Part shown: positions 8,036 to 57,180 of the stretch, piece after piece
Numbering within the stretch: position 1 is the stretch's first letter
Layout: every line of letters begins with the position of its first letter
Origin: a virus
Taxonomy: Duplodnaviria; Caudoviricetes
DNA length: 64,000 bases
Virus record (IMG/VR): IMGVR_UViG_3300021426_000001
Direction: 5' to 3' (one strand)
The notes under the pieces: model-generated
Told to the model about the DNA's origin: nothing
Seen by the model: the letters and a program-made list of their open reading frames with translations, nothing else
Database searches by the model: none
Made by a program: the position numbers and the translations under genes

Positions 8036-8059
8036 TATCATAGAGAATCTCAGAATGGC

Positions 8060-8136: not shown

Positions 8137-8163
8137 AAAGAGTCGACGAAGTGGCGCAAAGTT

Positions 8164-8171
8164 TATAAATA
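8164..8171 (+). promoter_or_regulatory. T4-type late promoter
   Basis: TATAAATA upstream of 8198. Confidence 0.75.
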
Positions 8172-8197
8172 TATGGTACAACCATTGGAGAATTTCT

Positions 8198-8917
8198 ATG
8201 GCACAGATGAGTTTTGAACAATCAATGAGAATTCTTGAATCCGCTGGAGTAGAGCTGGAGAGAATCGACGAAGCTAGAGGCGCATTCTCTCAGAGAAGAT
8301 TCGAGAGAGCTCTGAACGCAGCGATGAGAGAAGTCGATCAGTACTATCTCAGCACTAAGTATCACAAGCCCGCTTTCAGGAAAGACGGAAGATCTTACTA
8401 CAGCAGCTTCAAGCCGAACTCTTGGGGCGGACTGACTGTCTATGTTCAGTGCAATCCCGGCTGGTTTGAAGAGGGCGTCATGAGAAGTCTGATCAAGAGT
8501 CTCAATAAGAAGCTTGAAGAGGCTGGAGTCAATCTAGAGGGCAACGAGTCCTGGACGTACTCTTCGACGAAGGACGACATGGGCGAGTATGTCCAGTACG
8601 CTACATTCAATCCTCCGAAAGCACTTGACGTGGATCCCAGAGGGCTTATCAAGAACTGGAACGCTACTGGATCTACAGTTCTCGTCAATGTCGGCGGAAA
8701 GCCGATGAAGTTCAAGCACGAGAAGCAGCTCAGCAGCGAGATCAGAGACAACGGCTATCGTCAGCTCACTGGTCACTCTAGCGATGATCTATGGGTCTCT
8801 ACTGACAGATCTAGAGCTATCCTCGTCCACGCTAGCACCATTCATCCAGCTGCTGGAACTGACTACACTGCTAGACTTCTCGGACCAGAAGAGACGAAGA
8901 AGTATCTAGAGGAGTAG
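8198..8917 (+). CDS. late protein with shared N-terminal leader (putative head internal protein)
   Basis: GGAG RBS; MSFEQSMRILESAGVELE leader. Confidence 0.8.
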   Translation: MAQMSFEQSMRILESAGVELERIDEARGAFSQRRFERALNAAMREVDQYYLSTKYHKPAFRKDGRSYYSSFKPNSWGGLTVYVQCNPGWFEEGVMRSLIKSLNKKLEEAGVNLEGNESWTYSSTKDDMGEYVQYATFNPPKALDVDPRGLIKNWNATGSTVLVNVGGKPMKFKHEKQLSSEIRDNGYRQLTGHSSDDLWVSTDRSRAILVHASTIHPAAGTDYTARLLGPEETKKYLEE

Positions 8918-8956
8918 AGCATGGGAACTGACATGTAAACGGAAACAAGACGGAAA

Positions 8957-8987
8957 GAGGCGGAAGGTCATTCTTCCGCCTCGTTTT
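8957..8987. terminator. intrinsic terminator between convergent genes
   Basis: GAGGCGGAAG/CTTCCGCCTC stem plus T-run. Confidence 0.7.
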
Positions 8988-9024
8988 GTATCATTTCTGA
9001 TACGGCAACTGTATATGGTAAAAA

Positions 9025-9435
9025 TTATGCTTCGTGTTCGAAGTTGTCGAGGAAGTCGTTGTTGCAGTTGAGCGTCTCGCCAGTCCAGAGATCAGTGATC
9101 TTCCACGGAAAGCGAGTGCCGTATCTGAAGGTTTCGACCCTGAAGCTGTGACCCTTGTACTTGCGGCTCTTGGTTGTAGTGCCGAAGACGTGACCGCGAG
9201 GATCCTTCCCTTCGAACGGAGTGCCCTTGAGCCAGTTCATCATGACTGACTTGTCGTAGTCGCTCATAGCCAGCTTGCCGTCAGCAGCGACTTCTGCAAT
9301 CTCGACCGTGAAGAGATCGTAAGTGTCTGTGTAGCTTCCAGCTTTTCGGCGAACTGAGAGGTTCTTGCCCTTTGCCCATTCCTGGATGATTTCCATGAGT
9401 TCGTTTTCGAGCGCCAGAGCTTTTTCTTTATTCAT
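9025..9435 (-). CDS. hypothetical protein
   Basis: 136 aa downstream of promoter. Confidence 0.8.
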   Translation of the reverse strand: MNKEKALALENELMEIIQEWAKGKNLSVRRKAGSYTDTYDLFTVEIAEVAADGKLAMSDYDKSVMMNWLKGTPFEGKDPRGHVFGTTTKSRKYKGHSFRVETFRYGTRFPWKITDLWTGETLNCNNDFLDNFEHEA

Positions 9436-9468
9436 AGGTCAGATCCCTTGGTTGATTGTTACATTTCA

Positions 9469-9497
9469 AATATAGGATCTTCCGAGAGATCTGTAAA
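9469..9497 (-). promoter_or_regulatory. early promoter
   Basis: TTTACA-N17-TATATT. Confidence 0.8.
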
Positions 9498-9506
9498 CCC
9501 TGAAAA

Positions 9507-10082
9507 TCAAGAATTTTCAGAAAATCTCTTGTCGTTGAGGTTTCTGAGCCACTCGTCGCACTTCATGAAGGTTCCGATCTTTCTCATCATCTTCTCGTCA
9601 CCCTCAGAGAATCCGTCATACTTGCAGCGGATCGGATATACTCTCTCGATCTTTCCGTCATCGTCCATCTCCATCTGGATAGCCCAGCCGAAGATGTGCA
9701 GGAACATGTTGATGAATCTGAACAGACCATGCTCTCTGAGCTTCTCCCACGACTCTTCGTACCAGTCAGCTTGCTTCTCCTGGACTTTCTCTTCTGGGAG
9801 CGGCTCTACCTTCTCGCCGTTACCTTCGATGAGCTTCTGGATCTCTCTAGAGATCGTCTCTACGTTCTTCAGCTTGTGCACGGCCTCTGCATCCTCGTAG
9901 AACATCGGATTGTCGTCGTGGATCTCTATGTCGAACTCGTCTTCTAGCTTCATCACTGTCTCAACATAGTCTAGCTCGTCAGCACCGAAGTCTGCTAGCT
10001 CGTCTGCTAGTCCAACTCCAGTCACGTTGAGCTGCTCTTCTATCACTTTAGCTACTCTGCTCTGAATTTCTGCAAGATTCAT
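9507..10082 (-). CDS. acyl-carrier-protein-like domain (Ser to Glu) fused to unknown domain
   Basis: DFGADELDYVETVMKLEDEFDIEIHDD versus canonical DLGADSLDxVELVMxLEEEF; start reassigned to MNLAE with GAGG RBS. Confidence 0.8.
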   Translation of the reverse strand: MNLAEIQSRVAKVIEEQLNVTGVGLADELADFGADELDYVETVMKLEDEFDIEIHDDNPMFYEDAEAVHKLKNVETISREIQKLIEGNGEKVEPLPEEKVQEKQADWYEESWEKLREHGLFRFINMFLHIFGWAIQMEMDDDGKIERVYPIRCKYDGFSEGDEKMMRKIGTFMKCDEWLRNLNDKRFSENS

Positions 10083-10113
10083 AATGTGTCCTCTTTTTTC
10101 TAGCAAATATAGA

Positions 10114-10121
10114 TATAAATA
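10114..10121 (+). promoter_or_regulatory. T4-type late promoter
   Basis: TATAAATA. Confidence 0.7.
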
Positions 10122-10194
10122 ACTCAACGGACGAAAAGTCATGATCGAGTTCAAGCAGAACATGGGAAAGAGAATATACATTCAGAGGAAGCGT

Positions 10195-10791
10195 ATGTCA
10201 TACGGTGAATACGGATTTACAAAGCGTAGCGAAGTTCAGTCTAGCTACCAGGAGTACTCTTGCAAGCCGAGAGAAGAGAAAGAGCAGTCTTACCAGGAGT
10301 ATGGCGATCCGAAGATGAGCGGAACTTGCTCTCTGTTCGGTTCACAGCCAGCTCCAGTCAATCTCGCTGCGTTCGATGAGGAGATGGAGAAGTACTGCGA
10401 GCAGCAGAGAAAGATCAAGGCAGAGCGTCTGGCTAAGAGAACTGCTTACTGCGACTGGCACGACATCCAGGGCGACATGAGAGAGAAGATTCTCAAGGGC
10501 AGAATCTCTATCGAAGAGTTCGAAGCTCTCCAGAAGTCTGCAACAGATGTCACAGAAGCGCCAGAAGGAAGGCAAGAGCCAGTTGTTCTTACTGAAGAAT
10601 TCTTTCATCCTTCAGTAGAGTTCACAAATGCGCCAGAACAGCCTGCAGAAGCTCCGGTAGAGGTTCAGACGGATGTCACTACGGCAGAGACAGAAACTGT
10701 CCCAGAACAGCCGCAAACGGGCAAAAAGAAGAAGTCTAAGAAGAATACAGAGAATACTGAGAATACAGAGGAGGTTTCAGATGCAGAGTGA
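10195..10791 (+). CDS. acidic low-complexity late protein
   Basis: GAGG RBS before MSYGEY; QSYQEY and NTE repeats; alternative start 10141. Confidence 0.7.
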   Translation: MSYGEYGFTKRSEVQSSYQEYSCKPREEKEQSYQEYGDPKMSGTCSLFGSQPAPVNLAAFDEEMEKYCEQQRKIKAERLAKRTAYCDWHDIQGDMREKILKGRISIEEFEALQKSATDVTEAPEGRQEPVVLTEEFFHPSVEFTNAPEQPAEAPVEVQTDVTTAETETVPEQPQTGKKKKSKKNTENTENTEEVSDAE

Positions 10792-11242
10792 GATGTCGTT
10801 AGAGCAAGCTAGAAAGCTAATCGAGGGAAGCGGTCTGGTGATGGAAGCAGAGATTGGATCAGACGAGAGCGTAGATCTATACTCTTTCGCCTTCAACAGC
10901 CTACTAATGGCAGACAAGATCCACGCTTTCCACTTCTCCTGCGAGAGCGGATTCCAGCATACCCACTTCCAAGAGGTCTACGAGACTATTCGTGACTTCG
11001 CTGATGAGCTGACTGAGATAACTCTGTCTGGCGGAGTCGCTTACAAGTACGTCCCGATGACAGACATTCTGAAGCCAGAGCCGTTCACGATGAAGATGGC
11101 TGTCGACACGATCGATGGCTACATCGAGGACCTGGAGAAGATGTCTGAGCTTCACGCTGACAACACTAAGATCGCTAATCTGATCGACGACACGATCGAG
11201 AAGCTCAGCAAAGAAGTCGGACTTCTCAGATCATTCAAGTGA
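10781..11242 (+). CDS. ferritin/Dps-like four-helix protein with shared N-terminal leader
   Basis: HAFHFSCESGFQHTHFQEVYETIRDFADELTE; GGAGG RBS. Confidence 0.75.
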   Translation: MQSEMSLEQARKLIEGSGLVMEAEIGSDESVDLYSFAFNSLLMADKIHAFHFSCESGFQHTHFQEVYETIRDFADELTEITLSGGVAYKYVPMTDILKPEPFTMKMAVDTIDGYIEDLEKMSELHADNTKIANLIDDTIEKLSKEVGLLRSFK

Positions 11243-11243
11243 C

Positions 11244-11276
11244 AAAAAGGCGTCCATTCATCTGGACGCCATTCTT
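11244..11276. terminator. terminator between convergent genes
   Basis: GGCGTCCA/TGGACGCC stem with flanking A-run. Confidence 0.7.
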
Positions 11277-11286
11277 GTGTTAAGAT

Positions 11287-11529
11287 TTATTTACTATTCT
11301 TACTCTTCTTGGTCTTCTTGGTCTTCTGAGGAGTGACAGCTTTGACTTCCTCGATCTGCACCCTGATAGTCAGCGTGTCGTTGAAGTGAGTCTCTCTCTG
11401 GACTTCTTGACTCTCGACTGGATCATCCCTCCAGACTCCGCTGAGATCGATCGTAGCTAGGATAGCGATCAGTGCGCAGATGACTATGCCGATGATCCAG
11501 AAGTGCTTTGGCATCTTTTCTTCTGACAT
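11287..11529 (-). CDS. small membrane protein
   Basis: N-terminal TM, basic tail. Confidence 0.7.
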   Translation of the reverse strand: MSEEKMPKHFWIIGIVICALIAILATIDLSGVWRDDPVESQEVQRETHFNDTLTIRVQIEEVKAVTPQKTKKTKKSKNSK

Positions 11530-11541
11530 TTTCGATTCCCT

Positions 11542-11694
11542 CTAGAGTTTGATGTTGTGTTCATCCAAGACCTTGAGGCAGTGCTTGGAGAAGAGGAGAA
11601 GAACGTTCATGAAGGCGTAGTCCATGTTGGGCTGTCGTTCGCGGACGAACTTTTCCATGTCTCGGATTTCTTCAGGCTTGAGCTCAGTTCTCAT
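11542..11694 (-). CDS. small hypothetical protein
   Basis: GGAGG RBS before MRTELK. Confidence 0.65.
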   Translation of the reverse strand: MRTELKPEEIRDMEKFVRERQPNMDYAFMNVLLLFSKHCLKVLDEHNIKL

Positions 11695-11695
11695 C

Positions 11696-12253
11696 TTATG
11701 CCTCCACCCAGTCAGTGAGGTTGTTGAAGCCATCGGTGTGATTGCCGTAGACTTCTTCGTATTCGTTGTAGGACTTCCTGAGAGAGTCGTAGTGTCTCAC
11801 GCGTTCTTTTACGTCGATGCCGAGAGTGATCGGCTCGGAGACCTGAACAAGACGCTTGAAGCTGAGAGAGCCGTAAGTGGTGTAGTCGTTGCAGTGACGG
11901 ATAGCAGTGCGTTCAGCTTCCTTAGCAGTCTTAGCGTAGACTTCGCCCTTGCGGACAGAAGTTCCGAGCTGCGGATTGTAGCGGTTGTATTCGTAGATCC
12001 AGCGGCGGAGCGGATTCTTTTCACGGCGCTTGCGCTGACGCTTCGGCTTGGGAGCTTCTTCAACAGCAACAGCTCCGATGTTGTGATGTCCAGCGTAGCC
12101 GTAGCCGACTTCGTTGAGAGGAACGGTGTCGCCGTTGTGGAAGTTCACGGAGAGATCTTCGTCGTGGACGGAGACGATGTCACAGTCATACTTCTTGAGG
12201 AGAGCGGAGAGTTCGTTGCGGAAGTCTTGATGGTTGTTGAGGATGTTTTCCAT
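11696..12253 (-). CDS. hypothetical protein
   Basis: Start reassigned to MENILNN (AGGA RBS, downstream of promoter). Confidence 0.8.
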   Translation of the reverse strand: MENILNNHQDFRNELSALLKKYDCDIVSVHDEDLSVNFHNGDTVPLNEVGYGYAGHHNIGAVAVEEAPKPKRQRKRREKNPLRRWIYEYNRYNPQLGTSVRKGEVYAKTAKEAERTAIRHCNDYTTYGSLSFKRLVQVSEPITLGIDVKERVRHYDSLRKSYNEYEEVYGNHTDGFNNLTDWVEA

Positions 12254-12295
12254 ATTGTAGGTCCTTTGAAAGAGGTTGATTTGTTTTACATGTCT

Positions 12296-12324
12296 AATAT
12301 AGGATTTTCTCAACAGTTTGTAAA
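12296..12324 (-). promoter_or_regulatory. early promoter
   Basis: TTTACA-N17-TATATT. Confidence 0.8.
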
Positions 12325-12354
12325 TGGTAAAAATTGAGAAATCTCAATTTTTTC

Positions 12355-12522
12355 TCACAGACGGATTTCGATGTTCTTGACGCCGTGCTTCTTGTAGAGC
12401 TTGGCTAGGTTAGACTTGCACCAGAGCTCGAAGTCGGACATGAGAGACTTGTCGAACTGAGCGATGCAGTGTTCTCTCTTGTACTTGCCGTAGACTTTGC
12501 GGATGACCATTATCGTTGACAT
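12355..12522 (-). CDS. small hypothetical protein (55 aa)
   Basis: Manual translation MSTIMVIRKVYGKYKREHC...; AGGAG RBS. Confidence 0.7.
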   Translation of the reverse strand: MSTIMVIRKVYGKYKREHCIAQFDKSLMSDFELWCKSNLAKLYKKHGVKNIEIRL

Positions 12523-12540
12523 AGTTTCTCCTTTAGAAGT

Positions 12541-12807
12541 TTAGGTGGGCATGGAAGGATCGAGTTCGAGATAGCCCTTGTCGCAGCATACGCAGTTGAA
12601 AGAGCCTTCGTAGTTAGTGAAGCCGAGGAATTCACCTTCTTTGCCAGTGTTGTCAGATCTGTAGTAGAGATAGTCGCCGTAGTCTTCGTCGCAGACTTCA
12701 AGGAACCATTCTCCAGTAGAGGTGTCATAGAAGACGTTGCGGTTGTAGGAAGACAGCGATTTAGTCCATTTCCAGTTGCAGAGGTCGATTTTGCGAAGTT
12801 CTTTCAT
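12541..12807 (-). CDS. hypothetical protein
   Basis: Start MKELRK downstream of promoter. Confidence 0.75.
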   Translation of the reverse strand: MKELRKIDLCNWKWTKSLSSYNRNVFYDTSTGEWFLEVCDEDYGDYLYYRSDNTGKEGEFLGFTNYEGSFNCVCCDKGYLELDPSMPT

Positions 12808-12835
12808 TGTTATGTCCCTTGTTTTGTACATACAC

Positions 12836-12864
12836 AATATAGGATTTTCTCTACGTTTTGTAAA
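12836..12864 (-). promoter_or_regulatory. early promoter
   Basis: TTTACA-N17-TATATT. Confidence 0.8.
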
Positions 12865-12907
12865 TAGAGAAAATCCAAAAACTGTAACAAAGTCTGTATA
12901 GTTTTTG

Positions 12908-13309
12908 TTACTTTCTTACGCAGTGACGATCGCTGAGATCGTATGTCACGGCTTCGCAGGACTCTTTTCTGAAGTCTAGCTCATAGTCGTTCATCGGAAA
13001 GTTCTTCACAGTGCTCACTTCTCTCGGCTCGTTCATCACCAGGTGGCCCCAGCCCCAGATTAGATTCGTGTAAGTGACTGAGATCGTGTTTAGGACTTCA
13101 ACATCTGCGCCTCCAGACAAGAATCCTCCTCCACGCTGAACGTTCAGAGGATTGATTATCTTGGTGTCGCCGCACGGTGTCTGGTACACCAGCATGACTC
13201 CACGACGCTTGACTACTACTCTATCGCCCTTCATCACCTTCGACGTATAGTAGCAGTCAGCAAAAGCCGTGCAGGAGAGCAAGATGATCATCAACAAGAT
13301 CTTACGCAT
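12908..13309 (-). CDS. secreted protein
   Basis: Signal peptide MRKILLMIILLSCTAFA. Confidence 0.75.
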   Translation of the reverse strand: MRKILLMIILLSCTAFADCYYTSKVMKGDRVVVKRRGVMLVYQTPCGDTKIINPLNVQRGGGFLSGGADVEVLNTISVTYTNLIWGWGHLVMNEPREVSTVKNFPMNDYELDFRKESCEAVTYDLSDRHCVRK

Positions 13310-13775
13310 CGCTTACCTCGGCTTCTGGATCTGGATCGTTCCAGTAGTGATGGAAAGCTTCGATTGCTCTCTTGTAGTCGTCTACGTGAGTCACCTGAAT
13401 CTCGTATAGCGGGTACTGATGAGTCTCTGCGATGTAGTTAGCCTCTTCTCCGAGTCCCATGTGCTTTCCGAGTGCTTTGCCATTCTTGTAGCTCTTCTGT
13501 CCGACATCGAAGTAGTAGTCTGAAGACTCAGTCATGACGCCGTAGATCCATTTGTCGCCATCGCCGAGATCGCAGCCCCAGAACTCAGATATCTCTTCGT
13601 ACTCGGAGACTTCAGTGTCCTTGTCCTGATCAAACAGACCCTCGTCGACTGATAAGATAGCCTGGATGTCATCTCTGCTGATCGGCTTGTCAGTCACGTA
13701 CCAGCCCCAGTCTCCGTTCCCAGTCTTGTATATGTAGCCGAATAGCGTCTCTTTCTGCTCTTTCTTTTTCTTCAT
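13302..13775 (-). CDS. hypothetical acidic protein
   Basis: 157 aa, coupled junctions. Confidence 0.8.
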   Translation of the reverse strand: MKKKKEQKETLFGYIYKTGNGDWGWYVTDKPISRDDIQAILSVDEGLFDQDKDTEVSEYEEISEFWGCDLGDGDKWIYGVMTESSDYYFDVGQKSYKNGKALGKHMGLGEEANYIAETHQYPLYEIQVTHVDDYKRAIEAFHHYWNDPDPEAEVSDA

Positions 13776-14032
13776 ACTTTGCTCCTGTCCTCTTCGCCAC
13801 AGTCTACGACAGAAGTGACGACGACTGATGTTACTTCGTCTTTGTTCGGATCAGGAATGCCGAGAATAGTCATTCGCTGCGGAAGCTCGTACTTCTCGTT
13901 CTTAGACTCTTCCATGAAGTACTGAGCTAGCTCTGAGCCTCTCTTGCTAGTCACTCGGATGAAGGCGCCGTTGAAGTTGTACCCGAGCTTAGTTGTGCCC
14001 TGTACACAGATCAGATATGCGTGTGGATTCAC
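13772..14032 (-). CDS. hypothetical protein
   Basis: 86 aa, AGGAG RBS. Confidence 0.7.
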   Translation of the reverse strand: MNPHAYLICVQGTTKLGYNFNGAFIRVTSKRGSELAQYFMEESKNEKYELPQRMTILGIPDPNKDEVTSVVVTSVVDCGEEDRSKV

Positions 14033-14253
14033 TTTTGATTCTCCTTTCGTTCTTTGTCCTGGCAGTCATTGCAGAGCCATCTGCCGTGCATATAGGTCAT
14101 TCCGCCGACTCCAGTCGTTTCTCTTCCACAGCTTTCGCAGATATGATTAGCTGGACGGAGATTCCTCTTCTCGCCAAGCCACGTCTTCGGAAACACTCTG
14201 CGGCGAAATTTAGGAAACCCAGCAATCTTGAATAAATCTTCCAAATGACTCAT
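14029..14253 (-). CDS. small Zn-finger protein
   Basis: CESC...CNDC. Confidence 0.65.
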   Translation of the reverse strand: MSHLEDLFKIAGFPKFRRRVFPKTWLGEKRNLRPANHICESCGRETTGVGGMTYMHGRWLCNDCQDKERKENQK

Positions 14254-14280
14254 CGCATCTCCCTTTTAGTAAGACTTCAT

Positions 14281-14538
14281 CTAGTAGAGACGGAACACCT
14301 TGATCTTTCCGTCTTTCTTCTCTTCGAACACTTCGTAGGTGTAGTCAGTGTGGTCGAATCGGTCCCAGGTCTGACGCTTGACCATCTCTCCAGTGAGAGT
14401 CTTCATGTCGTACTTGCTCACGGGCAAGAGTCCAGACTGTTCCATTCCGTTCTGTAAGCCCACAATGACCAAATCATCGTCAACATTCTCTAATAGCTTC
14501 TTGAGATCTCCAACTTTCATGTCACTCATACCATGCAT
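14281..14538 (-). CDS. hypothetical protein
   Basis: MKVGDLKKLLENVDDD common phage N-terminus. Confidence 0.7.
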   Translation of the reverse strand: MHGMSDMKVGDLKKLLENVDDDLVIVGLQNGMEQSGLLPVSKYDMKTLTGEMVKRQTWDRFDHTDYTYEVFEEKKDGKIKVFRLY

Positions 14539-14921
14539 CTCCTTTCATTCTGCTTCTCAGCAGCGTCATCGCATGAAGCTACGTCGCTGTCTCGGCAGAC
14601 GAGCGCTACGTATCTCTTCAGTGTTCCGAGCGAAGTGCTCCATGCGAACATCTTGCACTTGTACTCGACGTCGTCTTTCTTCACTCGAACATCGATCGTC
14701 TTATTGTTCTCGTAAGCGTCGATCACGGTCTTGCATCCGTGAAGTACACAGAGACAGTCGTATCCGAGATCATCTTCGAGCTTTCCGTGAGCGTAGATCT
14801 CGCTGAAGATCTCAGTCGATCTCTTCAGCTCCAAGTAATATGGATCCATGTCTTTCGTTTCAAAGTCATGTATGTTAGCCAGGATTGGCGTTTCCCAGTC
14901 AGTTTCAATTTTCTTGTCCAT
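14526..14921 (-). CDS. hypothetical protein
   Basis: 131 aa, GGAG RBS. Confidence 0.7.
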   Translation of the reverse strand: MDKKIETDWETPILANIHDFETKDMDPYYLELKRSTEIFSEIYAHGKLEDDLGYDCLCVLHGCKTVIDAYENNKTIDVRVKKDDVEYKCKMFAWSTSLGTLKRYVALVCRDSDVASCDDAAEKQNERRCMV

Positions 14922-15119
14922 TTATGCTCCTCTGTAGAGTTTTGGAAATTCTTTCTTGAGATCGATCAGCTCTGGTTCACCAGTAGGAAGTCTATCGTCC
15001 AGATGGTTGAATGAGTCCAGGTTGTGCTTGATCGTCAGCTTAAGTCGTCTGTAAGCTACACAGACTACCACCGAGATGCATACGCTTACTGTTGCGATTA
15101 GTGCGAATAGTACTGTCAT
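14922..15119 (-). CDS. small membrane protein
   Basis: N-terminal TM. Confidence 0.65.
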   Translation of the reverse strand: MTVLFALIATVSVCISVVVCVAYRRLKLTIKHNLDSFNHLDDRLPTGEPELIDLKKEFPKLYRGA

Positions 15120-15121
15120 AG

Positions 15122-15523
15122 TTAGTTCAACTGTAGATTGCTGTGATTGACACGTACCTCGATGGAGATCTGTTCTTTTTCGAACTTCTCCTTGATCGTC
15201 TTGAGCTCTTCAATCAGATCTTTCGCGACGTATAGACGCTTCCATTCTCCGATAGTGTCGCGGTCTGCGTAGAAGTGCCAATCTTGTGTATCACGGCAGT
15301 CGAAAATGACAGATCGATAGTGGTAAGTCTTGTTTGGATCTTTTGTCATGCCGAGTATTTTCACGATGACCTCTGAGTCATCGCGGATCGATTGCGGCAT
15401 AGCTTTTCCAGCTTTCTTGAAGACCGTTGTCACAGCTGTTCGGAAGATCTCGAAACCATCTTTAGCGCCGAGGCCACGGAGGCTCATGTGCGGATCTGCT
15501 TTTTCCCTATTTGTCATTCTCAT
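15122..15523 (-). CDS. paralog family A member
   Basis: GMTKDPNKTYHYRSVIFDC, similar to 17522-17893. Confidence 0.8.
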   Translation of the reverse strand: MRMTNREKADPHMSLRGLGAKDGFEIFRTAVTTVFKKAGKAMPQSIRDDSEVIVKILGMTKDPNKTYHYRSVIFDCRDTQDWHFYADRDTIGEWKRLYVAKDLIEELKTIKEKFEKEQISIEVRVNHSNLQLN

Positions 15524-15525
15524 AG

Positions 15526-15942: not shown

Positions 15943-15973
15943 TTTGAGATCCTTGGTTGAGGTTTACATAGTC

Positions 15974-16002
15974 AATATAGGAATAACTACTTGACTTGTA
16001 AA
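15974..16002 (-). promoter_or_regulatory. early promoter
   Basis: TTTACA-N17-TATATT. Confidence 0.8.
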
Positions 16003-16015
16003 CCCTAAATTTTCT

Positions 16016-16537: not shown

Positions 16538-16721
16538 CCTGGGCCTCCTTTGGTCTGTTGTAGTAGTAGTCCATCATGTTTTCCCAAGCAGAGCCAAATC
16601 TCGGCATGAGTTCAAGACGACACATCTCGTAGAATTTCTGTCTGAGACGGATAGTAAACTTCACGTCCATCAGGTTGTACTGAAAATATGCGTCATAGTC
16701 TGGTTGCCACATCTTACTCAT
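16521..16721 (-). CDS. small hypothetical protein
   Basis: 66 aa, coupled. Confidence 0.6.
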   Translation of the reverse strand: MSKMWQPDYDAYFQYNLMDVKFTIRLRQKFYEMCRLELMPRFGSAWENMMDYYYNRPKEAQDAEIR

Positions 16722-17245
16722 CTTTTCATCTCCAGTTTCTTGTTAATGTCTACGTTCATATTTGTGAATACGAATCCCGCTTTCTCAATCTCGGCCTCTT
16801 TCTCTCGTCTCAGCTTCTCTGCGTACATAGCGTCAACTTCTGCTTTGAGCTTCATAGCGTCTTCTATCTTGTCGTGGTACTGAATCTTCCTGCCGAGCGG
16901 ATCCTCCCAGATGCAGTTACGGTCTCCGTAAGGCATCCAGCGCCACTCTTCCCACCCGTCATCTTCTAATGTCACGCCATATCGTCCGATCGCGAAGTGC
17001 CAGACCACGAACTTTCCGTTAGCGCACTGACAAATCTTCGTCTGATATTTGTGCTTGGAAGCGTAGATGCTCTTTGCGACTCCTCGGATGATCGACAGCA
17101 GGATGAAGAAGACTGCGATGAGTAGAAAGCCTGATCCCATCACCTTGTCTGTATCTTTTTGTGACAATTCGATAGATGAGCATACCGCGACTCCGCCGAA
17201 TAGGTATGCTAAAGTGAAGAATCCCCATAGATATATCATTCTCAT
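16718..17245 (-). CDS. membrane protein, family C
   Basis: Two TMs plus Trp-rich domain. Confidence 0.75.
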   Translation of the reverse strand: MRMIYLWGFFTLAYLFGGVAVCSSIELSQKDTDKVMGSGFLLIAVFFILLSIIRGVAKSIYASKHKYQTKICQCANGKFVVWHFAIGRYGVTLEDDGWEEWRWMPYGDRNCIWEDPLGRKIQYHDKIEDAMKLKAEVDAMYAEKLRREKEAEIEKAGFVFTNMNVDINKKLEMKR

Positions 17246-17248
17246 GAT

Positions 17249-17512
17249 CTACTTGACCTCTCTTGCCTGGAACTGGTTGAGCTGTTCTTGACAGAGCTCG
17301 AAGTCCATTCGAGTCGACTTGATCAGTCTGCCGAGACGCTGACGGTTCTGATCTTGAAGCTTGATCATCTCTTCGACTTGAGTCTGAATTTCGATCATCT
17401 TCTTAGCGTCATGCGTCTCCTGAATCAGCATACCTCCCTCTATGCAGCTAACGATCAATACGATGAGCGCTGCGATAGATGCGAAAACGTTAACTTCTAT
17501 TGTCTTTCCCAT
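17249..17512 (-). CDS. TM plus coiled-coil protein
   Basis: 87 aa, GGAG RBS. Confidence 0.7.
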   Translation of the reverse strand: MGKTIEVNVFASIAALIVLIVSCIEGGMLIQETHDAKKMIEIQTQVEEMIKLQDQNRQRLGRLIKSTRMDFELCQEQLNQFQAREVK

Positions 17513-17521
17513 GAGGTTCTC

Positions 17522-17893
17522 CTACTTGATTTTGAATTTGTCTTCTCTGATCGAGATTTCGAGAATGATGCCCTCAGACTTATATTTCGACTTTATGAGC
17601 ACCACGCATTCATCTAAGCGCTTGAGTGTCTTAATTTCTCTCCATGACCTCAAACCATTTCTGTCTTCATAGACAAAAGAGGCATTGCTAGAGACACCGC
17701 ACTGGAAGATGACTTGGTCATATTTGTACTTCGTGTTCGGATCTTTCGTTTCTCCGACAAGACGTATAGTAGCTACGCTGCTCGGTCCTATTCGCATGGG
17801 AAGCTTGTCTGCTATTCCGAAGTGAATGTCTAGAACATCACGGAAGAGATTGTAGGATTTAGCCTGATCATTGAAGTCTTCGTTGATTCTCAT
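17522..17893 (-). CDS. paralog family A member
   Basis: GETKDPNTKYKYDQVIFQC. Confidence 0.8.
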   Translation of the reverse strand: MRINEDFNDQAKSYNLFRDVLDIHFGIADKLPMRIGPSSVATIRLVGETKDPNTKYKYDQVIFQCGVSSNASFVYEDRNGLRSWREIKTLKRLDECVVLIKSKYKSEGIILEISIREDKFKIK

Positions 17894-17902
17894 CTTGCGC
17901 TC

Positions 17903-18325
17903 CTAGATTCCATCGAACGGTTCTTCTTCATCAGCTGGCCAGTACTTGACGCCGTCCATTCCCTCATCAGATACGAAGCTGGTCTTGTAACCCTTCTTCT
18001 CGAAGATCTCAGCAGCGAGTGACTGCTCTTCACAGCTAGTGAAGTAGATCTCGTCGCTGACTGGAGAGCTCTTGATGTGAGCTTCCACTCGTTCTTGAAC
18101 TCGACTGAGACGAACATCTAGAGCACGCTTCGCAGCATCTTTCTGCCATGTAGAGGCGAGTTCGAGTTCGATCTGGTGGTGAAGCATGTCGATGGCTTTG
18201 TGGTCGCCTTCTTTGACTTTGCCGTCTTTGACGATCTTGCCCCAGATGACAGCTTCGATTGCGCCGTCAGCGAGAGTCAAGATCTCGTCCATGTACGGCT
18301 TGAGGTCTATTTCTTGGTGTTGCAT
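17903..18325 (-). CDS. hypothetical protein
   Basis: 140 aa downstream of promoter. Confidence 0.8.
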   Translation of the reverse strand: MQHQEIDLKPYMDEILTLADGAIEAVIWGKIVKDGKVKEGDHKAIDMLHHQIELELASTWQKDAAKRALDVRLSRVQERVEAHIKSSPVSDEIYFTSCEEQSLAAEIFEKKGYKTSFVSDEGMDGVKYWPADEEEPFDGI

Positions 18326-18364
18326 TGGCTGGTCCTTGTTGATGATGAATTGTTTTACACAGTC

Positions 18365-18403
18365 AATATAAGAAAATCAGGGCTCTTTGTAAACCCTGAT
18401 TTT
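18365..18403 (-). promoter_or_regulatory. early promoter within stem-loop
   Basis: Near-identical to the 3232 and 4342 cassettes. Confidence 0.85.
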
Positions 18404-18421
18404 TAGATTTTCTCGAATTCT

Positions 18422-18598
18422 CTATCTCAGAATCTGCTCACGCACAAATCCCTTCGAATCCCAGTACTCGGATAGATATTTTGGAGACTCTGACTCGGTA
18501 GCGCAGGCATTGAAACTCGGTCCATCACGGTTTACATCTCTCATTGATCTCATGCCAGATTCTATCACACGCTGCCATTTCTTTGCGTTGGTATTCAT
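18422..18598 (-). CDS. small hypothetical protein (58 aa)
   Basis: Manual translation MNTNAKKWQ...; GGAGG RBS, ATGA overlap. Confidence 0.6.
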   Translation of the reverse strand: MNTNAKKWQRVIESGMRSMRDVNRDGPSFNACATESESPKYLSEYWDSKGFVREQILR

Positions 18599-18822
18599 TT
18601 CACCTCCTGAGCTTCTTGCTGTCTCCTGCGCTCATATTCACGCTTAGCCCAGTTGTCTTCTGGATTCTCTTCCCAGTCTGGACAGCTGGGATCATAGGTC
18701 GGCCAGTGGTGCTTCTTGCAAAGAGAGATCCACTGCCCAGACATATCCCTGCATCGGTGGTCGTAGCAGTGCTTGCACATCTGGCAGCGCAGAAAGTCAT
18801 CTCTGTTCTTTGGACTAGGCAT
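18595..18822 (-). CDS. small Cys-rich protein
   Basis: CQMCKHC...C...C...C. Confidence 0.7.
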   Translation of the reverse strand: MPSPKNRDDFLRCQMCKHCYDHRCRDMSGQWISLCKKHHWPTYDPSCPDWEENPEDNWAKREYERRRQQEAQEVK

Positions 18823-19189
18823 TCGATCCTCCCATGAGCTTCAGAAGGTACTTGACTCCCTTCTTCTCGCATATCTTCATCGCGTGAGCAGTTCCCTTGC
18901 TCTTTCCGTCCCAGATGATCAGAGCGACGTCAGCCTCTTTGACCATCTCTACGTTCCTTACATATCCAGCAGCTCGACCGTTCTTGTCCCAGTCTGCGGG
19001 ATGCTCTTCATAGGGAATCTTATGCTCGATAGCGTACAGTCTCGCTAGAGTGTCGACTCCCTTAGCGCCACCCTCTATGATGGTAATGTCTTCGCCATTT
19101 AGCATGACGCTCATCATCTCATCTAGCGCCTGGAAGACTTTGTGCTTATCGGTGATAGTTCTACTGCCCGATACGAGAAGCTTCTTCAT
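18815..19189 (-). CDS. SLOG family (YspA-like/DUF2493) protein
   Basis: VSGSR, IEGGAKGVD, ADW...AAGYVRN, WDGKSKGT. Confidence 0.9.
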   Translation of the reverse strand: MKKLLVSGSRTITDKHKVFQALDEMMSVMLNGEDITIIEGGAKGVDTLARLYAIEHKIPYEEHPADWDKNGRAAGYVRNVEMVKEADVALIIWDGKSKGTAHAMKICEKKGVKYLLKLMGGSNA

Positions 19190-19475
19190 ACTGCCTCAAC
19201 CTCTCCAAGAATTCTGGAGTGTCTGGATCTTCGACCTCTTCAAACGTACAATCGAGAAATATCTTCTTGAGGAAGAGCTCGCTCTTCGTACTGAGTGGTC
19301 CCAGCTCACGAGTTCTCATAAATTCTGCTATCTGTTCGAGAGCTGGCTCAAAACAGAAACGAGCAGCCTTGTTGATGTCGTCCGTCAGGTAGTCTTCCAG
19401 CTTCTCGTGGGACTTTCCGATCTCTACAATGAGATATTTCTGTGCTGGTGAATACTTTACTACATGGTTCTTCAT
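19161..19475 (-). CDS. hypothetical protein
   Basis: 104 aa. Confidence 0.7.
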   Translation of the reverse strand: MKNHVVKYSPAQKYLIVEIGKSHEKLEDYLTDDINKAARFCFEPALEQIAEFMRTRELGPLSTKSELFLKKIFLDCTFEEVEDPDTPEFLERLRQYEEASRIGQ

Positions 19476-19774
19476 ATCGCCTCTCCCTCTCGAAGCTCGC
19501 CATTCGTGATGAAGTACGTCAAGTGCTCGACTGCGCCATCGATGCTATCTGGCTTCACGTACTCGTAAGCATAGTCGTCTTTGTAGCGAGTGATGTCGAT
19601 CTTGTCATTGTCAACATCTATCGTGACCATGTTGTCTTCAGCGATATAGATCGCAGCCTGATTCGGACGGTCATAGTAGTGGCGAAAGATAGAGATCTTC
19701 CCCTTCTCTTCTTTCTTCTTCATCTTCTTCTTGCAGAGAAGAGCGTCGATTATTGCGTCTGTAGTGATTTTCAT
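19472..19774 (-). CDS. hypothetical protein
   Basis: 100 aa, ATGA overlap. Confidence 0.75.
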   Translation of the reverse strand: MKITTDAIIDALLCKKKMKKKEEKGKISIFRHYYDRPNQAAIYIAEDNMVTIDVDNDKIDITRYKDDYAYEYVKPDSIDGAVEHLTYFITNGELREGEAI

Positions 19775-20079
19775 ACTGGATTCACCTCTGTTGTTGCGCT
19801 GTACTGGACTTTCAGCGTTATTGAGTCAGTAAACATAGCGAAGTGGACATTCTTATGGCAGAGCTTCCTGAGTGATCCGTAGATGAGAAGCTCACGTAGT
19901 CCCTTGCTAGGACAGCTGATCGTAACGAACGAAGAGCATACAGACGGATCACCTGAGCGGAAGTACACGGGAGGAGTCTTGCCGTAAGTGCTCCAGTCGA
20001 TCTCCAGGTCTGCGAATCCAGACTCTTGTCTGAGCTTCTCTTCGAAGATTGCTTTGTAGTTTTTGCGGGTTATTCTCAT
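19771..20079 (-). CDS. hypothetical protein
   Basis: 102 aa, ATGA overlap. Confidence 0.75.
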   Translation of the reverse strand: MRITRKNYKAIFEEKLRQESGFADLEIDWSTYGKTPPVYFRSGDPSVCSSFVTISCPSKGLRELLIYGSLRKLCHKNVHFAMFTDSITLKVQYSATTEVNPV

Positions 20080-20300
20080 AGCTGTACCTGAGTGAGGTCA
20101 GTGAAAGACTTGGTCTTGCCGATCGTGATGTCGCTGAGCGGAATGTCGAACTCGGTGGCGTTGTCGAACATGTTGTCGCGGTTGTAGAAGTCATCGTCCA
20201 TCATGTACTTCATCTGGTTGACGAGATTCTTTGCCTGTTCGTCGGAGATTTCAGATTTAGTTTCGATTGTGATCGGGAGATAGACGGTCTTAGTTGCCAT
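20076..20300 (-). CDS. hypothetical protein
   Basis: 74 aa downstream of promoter. Confidence 0.75.
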   Translation of the reverse strand: MATKTVYLPITIETKSEISDEQAKNLVNQMKYMMDDDFYNRDNMFDNATEFDIPLSDITIGKTKSFTDLTQVQL

Positions 20301-20340
20301 TTTGAGGTCCTTTGTTGAGGTTGATTGTTGTTACAGTTGA

Positions 20341-20369
20341 AATATAGGAAACTTCAAGAGAATTCTAAA
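20341..20369 (-). promoter_or_regulatory. early promoter
   Basis: TTTAGA-N17-TATATT. Confidence 0.7.
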
Positions 20370-20384
20370 CCTCATTTCTCAACT

Positions 20385-20627
20385 TTATTCATCATCTTCT
20401 TCACATTCTCTTTCATACTGCTCTGCTAGCTCATAGTACAGGTCGCTCGGCATCAATCTGCATACGTATTCATATTTGCCATATCTCTCTTGAATGTGCT
20501 TGTACTCTCTGAGCATGTCAAGGAGATCTTTCATTTTGAATTCGTTAGCGTCTGCATATTGCTTCTTGAACTCTTTATCCTTTTCGAGCGTTTCACAGAA
20601 CTTGATAGCTTGATCTACATTTGCCAT
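20385..20627 (-). CDS. hypothetical protein
   Basis: AGGAG RBS before MANVDQ. Confidence 0.7.
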   Translation of the reverse strand: MANVDQAIKFCETLEKDKEFKKQYADANEFKMKDLLDMLREYKHIQERYGKYEYVCRLMPSDLYYELAEQYERECEEDDE

Positions 20628-20641
20628 ATTTTCTCCTTTTC

Positions 20642-21490
20642 TCAATTAGCCATGAAAAATTTGTCTCTGTTGGCTTCGACGAACCTGAGCATGTCGACAG
20701 TCTCTGTGTATTTGAGCAGATCCATCAGTCTTATCTCATGTTCAATGCGCTTCTTGTGCTGCTCTTCATGGAAGAGCATGTTCGCTGCGTCGTTGTTGTG
20801 GGAGAGCATCCAGTCAGAGTGTTCGATCTCTTCGATAGACTTCCATCTGACCATGAGAGACTCGCTGAACCCGACGTTTGTGACAATCTGATGGATGTCA
20901 GAGTCTGCCTTCGGATAGTAGGTATTATCTCCGATCTTGAAGGAGTACTGCTCGAAAGACTCGCCCCACCCGTCAGAGAACTGACCCTCTGCGTCATCTG
21001 CTATCGCTTTCAGCGTCTTCTTGAACTTCTCAGTGTCCATGACTATGTTCTCGTCGATCAAGTACTCTACGCAGAGCGAGAGTCCCTTCTCGTCGTCGAA
21101 AGAGATGAAGTGCTTCGACGGCTTAACTCCATCTGGCAGATCTTCTTCATTGTGAGGGAAACTTCTCGCAAACCAAGTCGGACTATACCACGCTAAGAGG
21201 TCTGGAAGGATCTTCTTCTGCTCTTCCAGCGACAGCTCCTGAAAGTCATCGCCGTCATCTCTGCGTACCCTCAGATTGTAATAGATCTGAACTTGTTGCC
21301 AGTAGGTTACATTGTCTCTCTTAGCGAGAAGCGGATCTACGTCCTCTTTGCGATAGAACTTCTCTGTGTCGCTGACGCTGCTATACTCTTGTCCGACGAT
21401 AGCGACTGTCTCGCTCGTGTCGTCTATTGAACCTATCTCGAACGAGTATTCACGTAGACCATACTCGTTCAACTCTTCTGAATTGCTCAT
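20642..21490 (-). CDS. hypothetical protein
   Basis: GQFSDGWGESFEQ motif; GGAG RBS before MSNSEE. Confidence 0.8.
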   Translation of the reverse strand: MSNSEELNEYGLREYSFEIGSIDDTSETVAIVGQEYSSVSDTEKFYRKEDVDPLLAKRDNVTYWQQVQIYYNLRVRRDDGDDFQELSLEEQKKILPDLLAWYSPTWFARSFPHNEEDLPDGVKPSKHFISFDDEKGLSLCVEYLIDENIVMDTEKFKKTLKAIADDAEGQFSDGWGESFEQYSFKIGDNTYYPKADSDIHQIVTNVGFSESLMVRWKSIEEIEHSDWMLSHNNDAANMLFHEEQHKKRIEHEIRLMDLLKYTETVDMLRFVEANRDKFFMAN

Positions 21491-21500
21491 TTTAAGCTCC

Positions 21501-21947
21501 TTAGACTTTTCCAAGTTCGATCTTCATAGTGTCGAGGATCTTCTTGATGACTGTGCGTAGACCCTTGCTGAACAACTCGATGTCGGAAGTCCATGTAAAT
21601 GCGTCCATCTCCTGGATCCAGAATCCGCGATCGTTCTTGAATGTAGACTTGCAGTAGACCTGTTCGATCAAATCATCATCGGCTCGTGCTACGAAGAGAT
21701 GAATGTCCTTTGTCTTGAGATACGGCATTACACCAGGGTCAAATTCGAGCTGGACTCTCGGATCACAGATGTTCGTCTCTTCATCTAGCTCGCGAAGAGC
21801 TACATCGAAGTCGTTACTCTCATTCGTCATCTTCATCCCCTTTGGGACATTCCAGCTTCCCTCGTTGAATGATGCGCCAGTAGGATGACATGCTAGAATT
21901 TCATTCTTGCTGTTGAGAATGAGAAATCCACAACTGATACTGTTCAT
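21501..21947 (-). CDS. Nudix hydrolase
   Basis: WNVPKG...VALRELDEETNI Nudix box. Confidence 0.9.
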   Translation of the reverse strand: MNSISCGFLILNSKNEILACHPTGASFNEGSWNVPKGMKMTNESNDFDVALRELDEETNICDPRVQLEFDPGVMPYLKTKDIHLFVARADDDLIEQVYCKSTFKNDRGFWIQEMDAFTWTSDIELFSKGLRTVIKKILDTMKIELGKV

Positions 21948-21994
21948 AATTTCTCCCTATTTGAGTTCACAGACTGAAGTTGTTTTACAGTTGA

Positions 21995-22023
21995 AATATA
22001 AATAAATCGTAGCTTTTTCTAAA
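21995..22023. promoter_or_regulatory. overlapping divergent promoters (early minus, late plus)
   Basis: Minus TTTAGA-N17-TATATT; plus TATAAATA at 21997-22004 overlaps the -10. Confidence 0.7.
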
Positions 22024-22044
22024 CCCATATTTTGAGAGAATCTT

Positions 22045-22320
22045 ATGAGACTATCAGAATCTTTTACACATCTGATCAAGAGCGGCGCAAAGTTCTTGAC
22101 TGAAGCAGAAGAGCGAGAGGCTCAGTACATCGCTGAGCTCAGACAGGCAGTGATGGTCAGAGCCGAGGCTGAGAACTTCGACAAGACGATCGATCAAGAC
22201 TATCTAGAGTCAGTCATGTTCGAAGCTTATAGCAGAGGAATGCCTCTAGAAGAGGCAAAAGAGCAGGTATGGCTCGCTGTCTATGTAGACAAAGATGCTG
22301 GTCCGGAGGTGATCGAATGA
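22045..22320 (+). CDS. late protein with degenerate shared leader
   Basis: MRLSESFTHLIKSGAKFLTE. Confidence 0.75.
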   Translation: MRLSESFTHLIKSGAKFLTEAEEREAQYIAELRQAVMVRAEAENFDKTIDQDYLESVMFEAYSRGMPLEEAKEQVWLAVYVDKDAGPEVIE

Positions 22321-23315
22321 CCATTCTAGACATGATCCTAGAGCGTGAGTTGACGCCTGAGCAGAGAGAAGCTAAGAGACTTCGCGCAAAGGCGAGAAGA
22401 GAGAAGCGCAGAGAGCAGACCGGAAGTGCAAGTCCAGCTCCAGCTCCCTCAAGAGACGATTCTCATCTTGACGACGTGGTCCGAAACAGAGAGCCAGATC
22501 CAGACTCCTCAGTAGAGATCTCATCTGGATTCCTTAGAGTTCAGTGGAGAAAGTACAACGAGAAGTACTTCGGTGGAGAGCTCAGAGAGCCGAAGTTCTT
22601 CATGCCGAAGAGCGGAAGTGGCTCTATGGGTGTCTGCACTCACGACTACGATCCGAGGTCCAACGAGATTTACTGCTCAGCTATCCGCATAAACGAGAAG
22701 CTCGAGAACTATCAGACCTTCAGAAACGTGATGGTTCACGAGATGGTTCACCAGTGGGCTTACCAGCAGCTCGACGAAGAAGACATCAGAAGAGCTAACG
22801 GATACGGCATGGCGAGAAGCCGAAAGTGGTGGAACGCTCTGACGAGTCCGATGGGCAGGGACGGACATCACGGCACATGGCTTCAGAAGTGCGAAGAACT
22901 TACCAGTAAGTTCCCTTATCTGAAGCTCACTAAGTATGGTCAGAAGGACGAGCTAGAGCTAGAGGGCGAAGAGAAGAGCGCTGCTGTCGAAGCTGCTAAG
23001 GGCAATCACATCGTTCTGTGTGAGCCTGGCGGAGGAAGACACAAGTACTTCTACTACCTCACAGACAGCGGATTCCAGGAGCTGAAGAGCGAGATCGAAG
23101 CTGGAAAGAGAGCTGGAAAGTGGGTCGAGTACGAGTTCGATCCAGAGAAGCTATCGAAAGAGAAGATCACTGCTCTCACTAGCGCCGGAAAGAGCGCATA
23201 CAAGGGCAGCTACCTCGATGACCTAATCGAGAGAGGAGTCGTGAGCAAGTGGAACTCTAAGCATCTCGGCGGAGAGAAGAGCACAGCAAGAAGAGTCAGA
23301 TTCTCATGGTTCTGA
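22317..23315 (+). CDS. SprT-like zinc metalloprotease
   Basis: YNEKYFGGEL, VMVHEMVHQW (HEXXH), GHHGTW; GGAGG RBS before MTILD. Confidence 0.85.
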   Translation: MTILDMILERELTPEQREAKRLRAKARREKRREQTGSASPAPAPSRDDSHLDDVVRNREPDPDSSVEISSGFLRVQWRKYNEKYFGGELREPKFFMPKSGSGSMGVCTHDYDPRSNEIYCSAIRINEKLENYQTFRNVMVHEMVHQWAYQQLDEEDIRRANGYGMARSRKWWNALTSPMGRDGHHGTWLQKCEELTSKFPYLKLTKYGQKDELELEGEEKSAAVEAAKGNHIVLCEPGGGRHKYFYYLTDSGFQELKSEIEAGKRAGKWVEYEFDPEKLSKEKITALTSAGKSAYKGSYLDDLIERGVVSKWNSKHLGGEKSTARRVRFSWF

Positions 23316-23323
23316 TATAAATA
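23316..23323 (+). promoter_or_regulatory. T4-type late promoter
   Basis: TATAAATA. Confidence 0.75.
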
Positions 23324-23337
23324 GAACGAGGTTTAAT

Positions 23338-23652
23338 ATGGAGATGAATTTTAGTCAAGCGAAAGAGCTCCTAGAGAGCGTTGGAATGAGGATAGAGGAA
23401 GATACTCTAGAAGCCAAGAGTGAGCTCGCAGATACCTTCATTCACTCTATCATGCTAGAGATAGAAAAATACACTTCTGGAAGAACTTCAAAGTATTTTA
23501 AACACTACGAAATAGAGATCATGCGACAGATAATGGCTTTTGTATATGAGTATGCACAGAGAACATGCGAACTGAGCGGAAGTCCATGTAACTTGGAAAC
23601 TCTAAAGCAAGTGATAAAATCAGAATATGATGCAAATCATGTAGGAAAGTGA
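23338..23652 (+). CDS. late protein with shared leader
   Basis: MNFSQAKELLESVGMRIE. Confidence 0.8.
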   Translation: MEMNFSQAKELLESVGMRIEEDTLEAKSELADTFIHSIMLEIEKYTSGRTSKYFKHYEIEIMRQIMAFVYEYAQRTCELSGSPCNLETLKQVIKSEYDANHVGK

Positions 23653-23653
23653 T

Positions 23654-24025
23654 ATGGCTATGACATTTGAGCAAGCGATCGACATCCTGGCATCTGAGCC
23701 AGTCATCCTAGAGTCTAAGGGACCGAGAACGGCAGAAGACTGGAAGAAGATCTCAGAGATCTGGCTGAAGAAGAGAGACGAGCAAGTCAAGCTTCTTCAG
23801 GACAACCCTCAGTGGATCGGAAGACCAGCTGAGCTGAGCACTAAGAAGCTCATCGCCAAGTACAACGGCTACTACAAGAGAGCCCTCGAAGAGTTGAAGA
23901 ACTGCGAGGACTACGATGAGCGCATGAGAGAAGAGCAGCGCCAGGCTGACCTCGAGTGGGAGCAGCAGTGCGAGCTAGAGACGATGCGCAACTATGACTT
24001 CGATCGCGGAGACTGGAGATACTAG
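23654..24025 (+). CDS. late protein with shared leader
   Basis: MTFEQAIDILASEPVILE. Confidence 0.8.
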   Translation: MAMTFEQAIDILASEPVILESKGPRTAEDWKKISEIWLKKRDEQVKLLQDNPQWIGRPAELSTKKLIAKYNGYYKRALEELKNCEDYDERMREEQRQADLEWEQQCELETMRNYDFDRGDWRY

Positions 24026-57159: not shown

Positions 57160-57180
57160 GTTGTCTCCTGTTTATAGGAC

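Follow-up and report, generated by a model that had tools for sequence, protein, structure and literature searches.

In T-even bacteriophages, a targeting peptide shared by diverse proteins of the head interior is well established (PMC3012670, PMC9026906). The capsid-targeting sequence (CTS) is found on the T4 internal proteins IPI, IPII and IPIII, and propeptides occur on Alt and gp21, as far as the reviews summarize this work (Mullaney and Black 1996, reviewed in PMC9026906, PMC3012670). In IPIII the targeting sequence corresponds to the first 10 residues, and gp21 cuts after L/I-x-E (PMC9026906). In the present work we analyzed a 64-kb stretch of DNA (hereafter the window) from the IMG/VR virus record IMGVR_UViG_3300021426_000001 (Caudoviricetes), in which four late proteins carry an 18-residue motif made up of a helix and a strand, the tag. 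We hold, with about even confidence, that the tag may be a portable docking peptide that recruits unrelated late proteins into the prohead core, beside the classic CTS, and that is sometimes cleaved off. A first-pass annotation, made from the letters of the window, had proposed a new capsid-targeting signal; the tag itself matches nothing in T4, but the principle of one targeting peptide on many head-internal proteins is not new.

The tag follows the consensus M-x-(F/L/I/V)-x-(E/Q)-A-x-x-(I/L)-(I/L)-(E/K/N)-(S/E)-x-G-h-x-h-h, where h stands for a hydrophobic residue, a pattern that reads as an acidic amphipathic helix, a glycine turn and a short strand. Proteins of the window are named here after the first position of their genes. 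ATG codons at 8198, 10781, 23338 and 23654 lie upstream of the conserved methionine of the motif (the first residue of each tag copy in table 1) and show better Shine-Dalgarno spacing, indicating that the tag begins two to four residues inside each protein and that its methionine is a conserved residue and not a start codon. Of the 1607 candidate starts in the window, a loose regular expression matched exactly 4, namely those of the four tagged genes. With a profile hidden Markov model (HMM), the four tags scored 17–29 bits across profile runs (17.4–24.6 bits in one of them), while the best scores in null databases were 8.4–8.8 bits for reversed and 7.7 bits for shuffled six-frame translations. 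The fifth, weaker leader that the first-pass annotation had placed on the 22045 protein had no N-terminal match (1.1 bits, elsewhere in the protein). The unrelated bodies described for the five proteins were confirmed by a best pairwise BLASTP E-value of 0.64. At the DNA level the window copies are only 44–59% identical and third codon positions show no conservation, suggesting that the motif has been kept at the protein level and does not represent a recent DNA copy. Moreover, the tag is conserved across homologues that are 64–95% identical.

Searches for similar sequences elsewhere returned little. The tag profile had no match in the T4 genome at E-values up to 10, and the tag does not resemble the T4 CTS (MKTYQEFIAE), a T4-like pattern being found on other late proteins of the relatives described below. 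Against PDB sequences only generic helix-glycine-strand matches appeared, such as the N-terminus of succinyl-CoA synthetase (10–13 bits per stretch), and weak Pfam matches to PASTA, ApbA_C and Glyoxalase were likewise dismissed as generic. HicA-like, SHOCT and SAP/HeH identities were considered and set aside because nothing is conserved after the 18-mer and C-terminal copies end right behind the tag.

Near-identity DNA searches of both islands against 50,697 cultured phage records gave no match. In IMG/VR, neither an exact copy of a 40-mer from the window nor a relative of the 8198 protein was found. The SprT-like protein of the window led to the IMG/VR contig 3300028886_000037 (G001; 248 kb, 98% complete), whose capsid protein led in turn to G002 (243 kb, with terminal repeats, 100% complete) and G003 (120 kb). 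Alignment of these three genomes with the window is limited to about 10 kb, where identity is about 75%. From 26 tags (alignment A4) we built a profile and scanned it over the window and the three relatives, as the first-pass annotation had suggested; it recovered 35 copies at or above 9 bits, of which 4 are in the window, 13 in G001, 14 in G002 and 4 in G003; the reversed database gave none.

The association of the tag with late transcription is strong. In the window there are 10 occurrences of the T4 late-promoter motif TATAAATA, where 0.57 would be expected, and four plus-strand units begin at this motif, with hairpins after the genes of three of them (table 1); these promoters precede all units in question, in agreement with the first-pass annotation. 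Fifteen of 25 tagged open reading frames (ORFs) lie directly behind TATAAATA, compared with 101 of 1012 other ORFs (Fisher p = 2.9e-9), so that the motif is not equally frequent in early genes. The remaining tagged ORFs are second or third genes of TATAAATA late units, and the tag is confined to late transcription units. A few apparently non-late proteins (window 1458–1793, minus strand; G002 116078 and 117652) start with M-x-(F/Y)-(D/E)-E-A-K, like the first half of the tag, and lack L-L-E-S-x-G. The N-terminal helix of the first of them, the product of an early gene, scores 6.7 bits, under the null maximum, and the 10.4 bits of the G002 116078 copy come solely from the first nine positions of the profile.

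The cargo is not the same in all of these genomes. The 8198 and 10141 proteins are absent from G001–G003, the 23338 protein was found only in G001, and only G002 has the 23654 and 22045 proteins; the SprT-like gene next to them has 66–71% identical orthologs in G001 and G002. In the window, the flanks of the first two late cassettes (8025–11760) correspond to sequences that are adjacent in G001 (167613–167740), indicating that the whole 3.7-kb block was inserted or deleted between the relatives. This block comprises two tagged cassettes, a minus-strand gene at 9025–9435 and an acyl-carrier-like gene at 9507–10181.

The proposal of an N-terminal leader holds for the four window proteins but does not cover all copies in the relatives, in which the tag takes three positions: near the N-terminus, at the very C-terminus (2–4 residues short of the stop codon) and, in longer ORFs, where two domains join. 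C-terminal tags are mostly followed by a terminator hairpin or by non-coding sequence, and because of these hairpins we rejected, for most of them, an origin as read-through junctions. The gene of one C-terminally tagged protein of 103 residues (G001 136528–136839) ends in TAA, and one codon further on the next gene begins in the same frame; read-through would place the tag at a junction. Nested translation starts were rejected as a general rule for internal tags, since the conserved methionine persists 2–10 residues inside N-termini. In the 23654 family, the tag is N-terminal in P0097, P0098 and P0101 and lies inside fused multi-domain proteins in P0099 and P0100, where the 23654-type body is the last module and a tag stands ahead of each module. 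The junction copies are accounted for by such fused homologues from metagenomes. In G001 the counterpart of the 23654 protein retains the C-terminus and has a different, untagged N-terminus. The tag is thus modular and detachable. Fused multi-domain organization, with tags or (I/V)-N-E↓S (the arrow marks the expected cut) at each junction, was seen in P0100, P0099, P0022 and P0023 and in the long forms P0042, P0045, P0053, P0054, P0059, P0064, P0066 and P0069; judging from these sequences, they could be polyprotein-like precursors that the prohead protease could split.

A prohead protease of the gp21 family is encoded by G001 (Peptidase_S77, PF03420, 106.6 bits), under its own late promoter, and has an ortholog in G002. 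The G001 operon consists of the protease, a 118-residue protein and, as its last gene, a 150-residue protein that starts with the tag followed by an arginine-rich helix. In G002 the operon includes two tagged proteins, one of them of 198 residues with the tag at its C-terminus. The presence of tagged genes in the gp21 operon of both genomes links the tag to the head core. The genes for the T4-type scaffold (PF25623) and the capsid protein are located elsewhere in the genome than this operon; in G001, about 130 kb separate the protease gene (214441–215130) from the scaffold and major capsid genes (84982–87378). In T4, genes 21, 22 and 23 are neighbours.

Sites of the type recognized by such proteases are present near several tags. 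The 8198 family comprises 35 metagenome homologues, and the tag is found in 21 of 22 aligned sequences, the exception (P0042) being called from an internal methionine within the tag. In these 22 homologues I23, D24 and E25 are invariant and A26 is nearly so, and R-I-D-E fits the [ILV][ND]E pattern of canonical late N-termini in the relatives. Long forms of the family have an extra C-terminal domain joined via VNE↓S. INE↓S precedes the Dps-like body in G001, G002, P0017, P0022 and P0023, and also occurs at a junction of the fused form P0100. We take the invariant I-D-E, INE↓S and VNE↓S near tags as signs of protease substrates. Besides the tag, the relatives have classic T4-type CTS-like N-termini, MKxFxxF-(I/L/V)-(N/D)-E, in 18 of 90 late proteins compared with 40 of 752 others (p = 8.6e-6), and gp21 itself has one (LLNE↓A).

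A late protein of 132 residues located amid T4-type CTS genes of G001 (55191–55589, minus strand; L008:15191–15589) contains a tandem pair of look-alike units, E-A-I-E-V-A-x-A-H-G-Y-K-V-V, together with an acidic tail. Its orthologs (L064:15219–15620, L060:2125–2535) are 70–77% conserved in G002 and G003, and the same tandem pair is found in a 341-residue protein at G001 161471. The tag profile gave no score on either tandem look-alike protein, and the AlphaFold model of the tandem-repeat protein P0001, concerning the pairing of two tag-like units, was too low in confidence to inform (predicted local distance difference test, pLDDT, 38.8). The tag may have a partner or hub in these proteins.

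Among the tagged proteins, the 10781 protein could be assigned a probable fold. It matches phrog_858 (E = 5e-12) and, below the cut-off of 34.6 bits, Pfam DUF5856 (29.3 bits), and its homologues carry PF19174. The AlphaFold model (pLDDT 85.6) contains a four-helix bundle from residue 27 on with pLDDT above 90, and the tag forms a separate helix (residues 7–16, pLDDT about 70) linked to the bundle by a coil. Foldseek aligned the model with Dps structures at template-modelling (TM) scores of 0.6–0.69 and a probability of 1.00, and by this modelling the protein is predicted to have a Dps-like fold, DUF5856. Only the DUF5856 homologues nearest the window protein have the tag; the majority form of 142 residues lacks it, and also lacks the hydrophobic-x-Glu that follows it. 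In the 23338 family, all homologues with an intact N-terminus have the tag. Language-model features of the 23338 body are nearest to histone-fold families (0.87–0.88, below the 0.9 level that counts); if this lead is true, the head would contain 23338 as a histone-like protein.

The 22317 protein scores 23.5 bits for SprT-like in Pfam, below the cut-off of 25.6, and has a HEMVH motif. At its N-terminus (22317–22420) a shortened leader, M-T-I-L-D-M-I-L-E, is followed by an arginine-rich helix. Helices of the type T-P-E-Q-I-A-R-R-R-W-R-A-K stand directly behind the tag in G001 213536–213988 and in G002 57042–57494, 144634–145341 and 128805–129794, and from their composition are possibly nucleic-acid-binding arms. 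A scan of all cargo proteins of the relatives against Pfam and PHROGs gave no functional match.

How might the tag work? In a clade of rumen T4-like giant phages, each genome has about a dozen late proteins that carry it and are otherwise unrelated. At the assembling prohead core the tag would recruit these proteins, which would end up inside the head with the DNA, and it would thereby act as a second targeting signal next to the classic T4-type CTS. If a gp21-type site (I/L/V-x-E) stands behind it (in the 8198 protein, RIDE↓A), the tag would probably be part of a propeptide removed by the prohead protease; in the C-terminal copies and in the 23338 family it may remain attached. In this scheme, the presence of the tagged proteins in the head, their co-injection, their cleavage and the partner to which the tag docks are inferred.

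The capsid-targeting role proposed from the start is favored by the confinement of the tag to late units, its modularity, the fast-changing and unrelated cargo, the gp21 operon and the invariant I-D-E site of gp21 type in the 8198 family. Several observations weigh against it. There is no cultured relative, the major capsid protein being at most 31% identical to that of any isolate, and the helix-glycine-strand pattern is generic enough for weak matches to unrelated folds. A canonical CTS already exists in these phages on other late proteins, gp21 included, and both signals occur together in G001 12644–13540 and 165218–165952. The coexistence of tag and CTS in the same phages, even in the same protein, suggests that the tag may do something other than core targeting. 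A candidate cleavage site ending in glutamate, also expected at first, is seen behind the tag in the 8198 family, but only some copies have the glutamate that closes the 18-mer, a canonical protease site is not conserved in the 23338 family and the C-terminal copies are bounded by the stop codon and show no cleavage site ahead of them. Finally, tagged proteins contain 0.41 [ILV][ND]E per 100 residues and 0.16 of the reversed motif (0.24 and 0.23, respectively, in other non-late proteins), which is a modest enrichment.

A bolder version of the docking-peptide reading is that the tag represents a second, position-independent capsid-loading code, placed at the N-terminus, at the C-terminus or between polyprotein-like domains, which would work parallel to the CTS and load a changing set of DNA-associated effectors for co-injection. 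We regard it as tentative, with the balance somewhat against it. Candidates for such effectors are the Dps-like protein, the SprT-like protease partner set and the arginine-rich proteins.

The same position-independence is typical of docking peptides in general, and the tag may instead dock or hetero-oligomerize in another late assembly, such as the capsid exterior (as decoration), the neck, the tail, the baseplate, a shared late chaperone or a network of tags binding each other. That the tag occurs alongside a canonical CTS, in some cases within a single protein, points to another function and makes this alternative, the main rival, a serious one, and a head-cluster protein of the relatives does have two tandem look-alike repeats. 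We nevertheless consider it unlikely: two tagged genes are in the gp21 operon, several cargoes look DNA-associated (the Dps-like fold and the arginine-rich helices right behind the tag), protease-type sites are found at tag ends and junctions and in Pfam and PHROGs none of the tagged proteins has a match among tail, fibre or decoration families.

The arginine-rich helices may be read in another way. Several tags run directly into T-P-E-Q-I-A-R-R-R-type helices, the SprT-like protein has an arginine-rich part with a shortened leader and there are the weak matches to PASTA and ATP-grasp N-termini, so that the 18-mer might be the first half of a small inherited nucleic-acid-binding or structural element (e.g., a helix-extension-helix with an arginine-rich helix) that has no targeting role. 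Such an origin seems improbable to us, as the sequences behind most tags are unrelated, C-terminal copies have no second helix (they stop 2–4 residues past the strand), the 18-mer is acidic and the other ORFs of these genomes, early genes among them, lack it. Chance or compositional similarity of amphipathic N-terminal helices, of which the partly similar start of the early gene 1458–1793 is a reminder, is refuted by the controls, given 17–29 bits against at most 8.8 in reversed or shuffled sequence, the exact placement at termini, the conservation across homologues and the late-promoter association.

The window otherwise contains mostly minus-strand genes, including those for RnlA-type and Rnl2-type RNA ligases and a Ro-like protein. 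Table 1 lists the features of its late cassettes. Ahead of the first of them, at 8037–8120 (minus strand), a run of 11-bp repeats containing TTAACA lies between divergent early and late units and gives several overlapping promoter-like matches. Beyond the last one, the segment 26001–28000 has a G+C content of 0.29, compared with about 0.48 elsewhere, and its genes stand beside a UDP-galactopyranose-mutase-like ORF (24230–25402); it is probably a horizontally acquired sugar-modification block.

Table 1. Late cassettes of the window: promoters, genes, tag copies and hairpins
Feature	Position	Strand	Remarks
Late promoter TATAAATA, cassette 1	8164–8171	+	T4-type; 34 nt before ATG 8198
Tagged late protein, 239 residues	8198–8917	+	No Pfam/PHROG match
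Tag copy 1, 18 residues	8207–8260	+	HMM 22–27 bits against null maximum 8.8
R-I-D-E, candidate prohead-protease site	8261–8272	+	Cut expected after Glu 8270–8272, before Ala
Terminator-like hairpin, end of cassette 1	8957–8982	+	11 pairs, then T-rich tail
Late promoter TATAAATA, cassette 2	10114–10121	+	
First gene of cassette 2, 216 residues	10141–10791	+	Untagged; no Pfam/PHROG match
Tagged Dps-like (DUF5856/phrog_858) protein, 153 residues	10781–11242	+	Predicted from PHROG, Pfam, AlphaFold, Foldseek
Tag copy 2, 18 residues	10793–10846	+	HMM 17–24 bits
Bidirectional hairpin, end of cassette 2	11249–11270	Not assigned	
Late promoter TATAAATA, cassette 3	21997–22004	+	
Late protein, 91 residues, no N-terminal tag match by profile	22045–22320	+	Ortholog in G002 only
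SprT-like metalloprotease candidate	22317–23315	+	N-terminal Arg-rich helix; without full tag
Late promoter TATAAATA, cassette 4	23316–23323	+	
Tagged late protein, 104 residues	23338–23652	+	No Pfam/PHROG match
Tag copy 3, 18 residues	23344–23397	+	HMM 24.6–29 bits
Tagged late protein, 123 residues	23654–24025	+	
Tag copy 4, ends I-L-E then S	23660–23713	+	HMM 21.5–26 bits
Hairpin, end of cassette 4	24197–24228	+	14 pairs

If the tag is a head-loading signal, a dozen or more uncharacterized proteins per genome become candidates for co-injection with the DNA. In T4 the class of injected proteins includes anti-restriction and host-takeover factors (Alt, IPI). T4-type heads would then recognize more than a single loading signal, whichever end of the protein carries it, and a new peptide would be at hand for packaging foreign proteins into phage capsids. 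If the tag binds something else, it still defines an interaction hub of late proteins in an abundant group of uncultured gut phages.

Among known systems, the T4 CTS is similar in several respects, being a short acidic/hydrophobic peptide on unrelated, fast-evolving proteins expressed from late promoters. A gp21-family prohead protease is also shared, seen here in G001 and G002, and glutamate-terminated I/L/V-x-E sites stand behind the peptide, in our case in some families only. The turnover of cargo resembles that of the internal-protein loci of T-even phages (PMC3012670), and the presence of tags at both termini has a counterpart in T4 Alt, since C-terminal propeptides exist in Alt and gp21 and terminal propeptides may be found at both ends of a head protein (PMC9026906). 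On the other hand, the T4 CTS has 10 residues and the tag 18, in a helix-glycine-strand arrangement, and their sequences are unrelated. Unlike the T4 CTS, the tag also occurs at C-termini and junctions, does not include the cleavage site as a fixed part and coexists with a T4-like CTS (MKxFxxF-I/L/V-N/D-E) on other proteins; its packaging and cleavage are putative.

The giant phages phiKZ and SPN3US also load many proteins into the head and cleave them after glutamate at short motifs, in a multi-site, polyprotein-like manner (PMC5694885, PMC7411985, PMC9026906). Their lineage and cleavage motif, however, are different. To our knowledge, no shared sequence tag has been reported among phiKZ or SPN3US propeptides. 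Outside the viruses, the cargo-loading peptides of encapsulins are short N- or C-terminal peptides that bring unrelated cargo, including ferritin-like proteins, into an HK97-fold shell. The tag is similar to them in its use of either terminus and in that one tagged cargo is Dps/ferritin-like, but the sequences do not resemble each other, encapsulins are non-viral and any binding of the tag to the capsid protein is hypothetical. Set beside these systems, the tag probably extends the T4 capsid-targeting idea, as a second, position-independent signal for head loading or docking.

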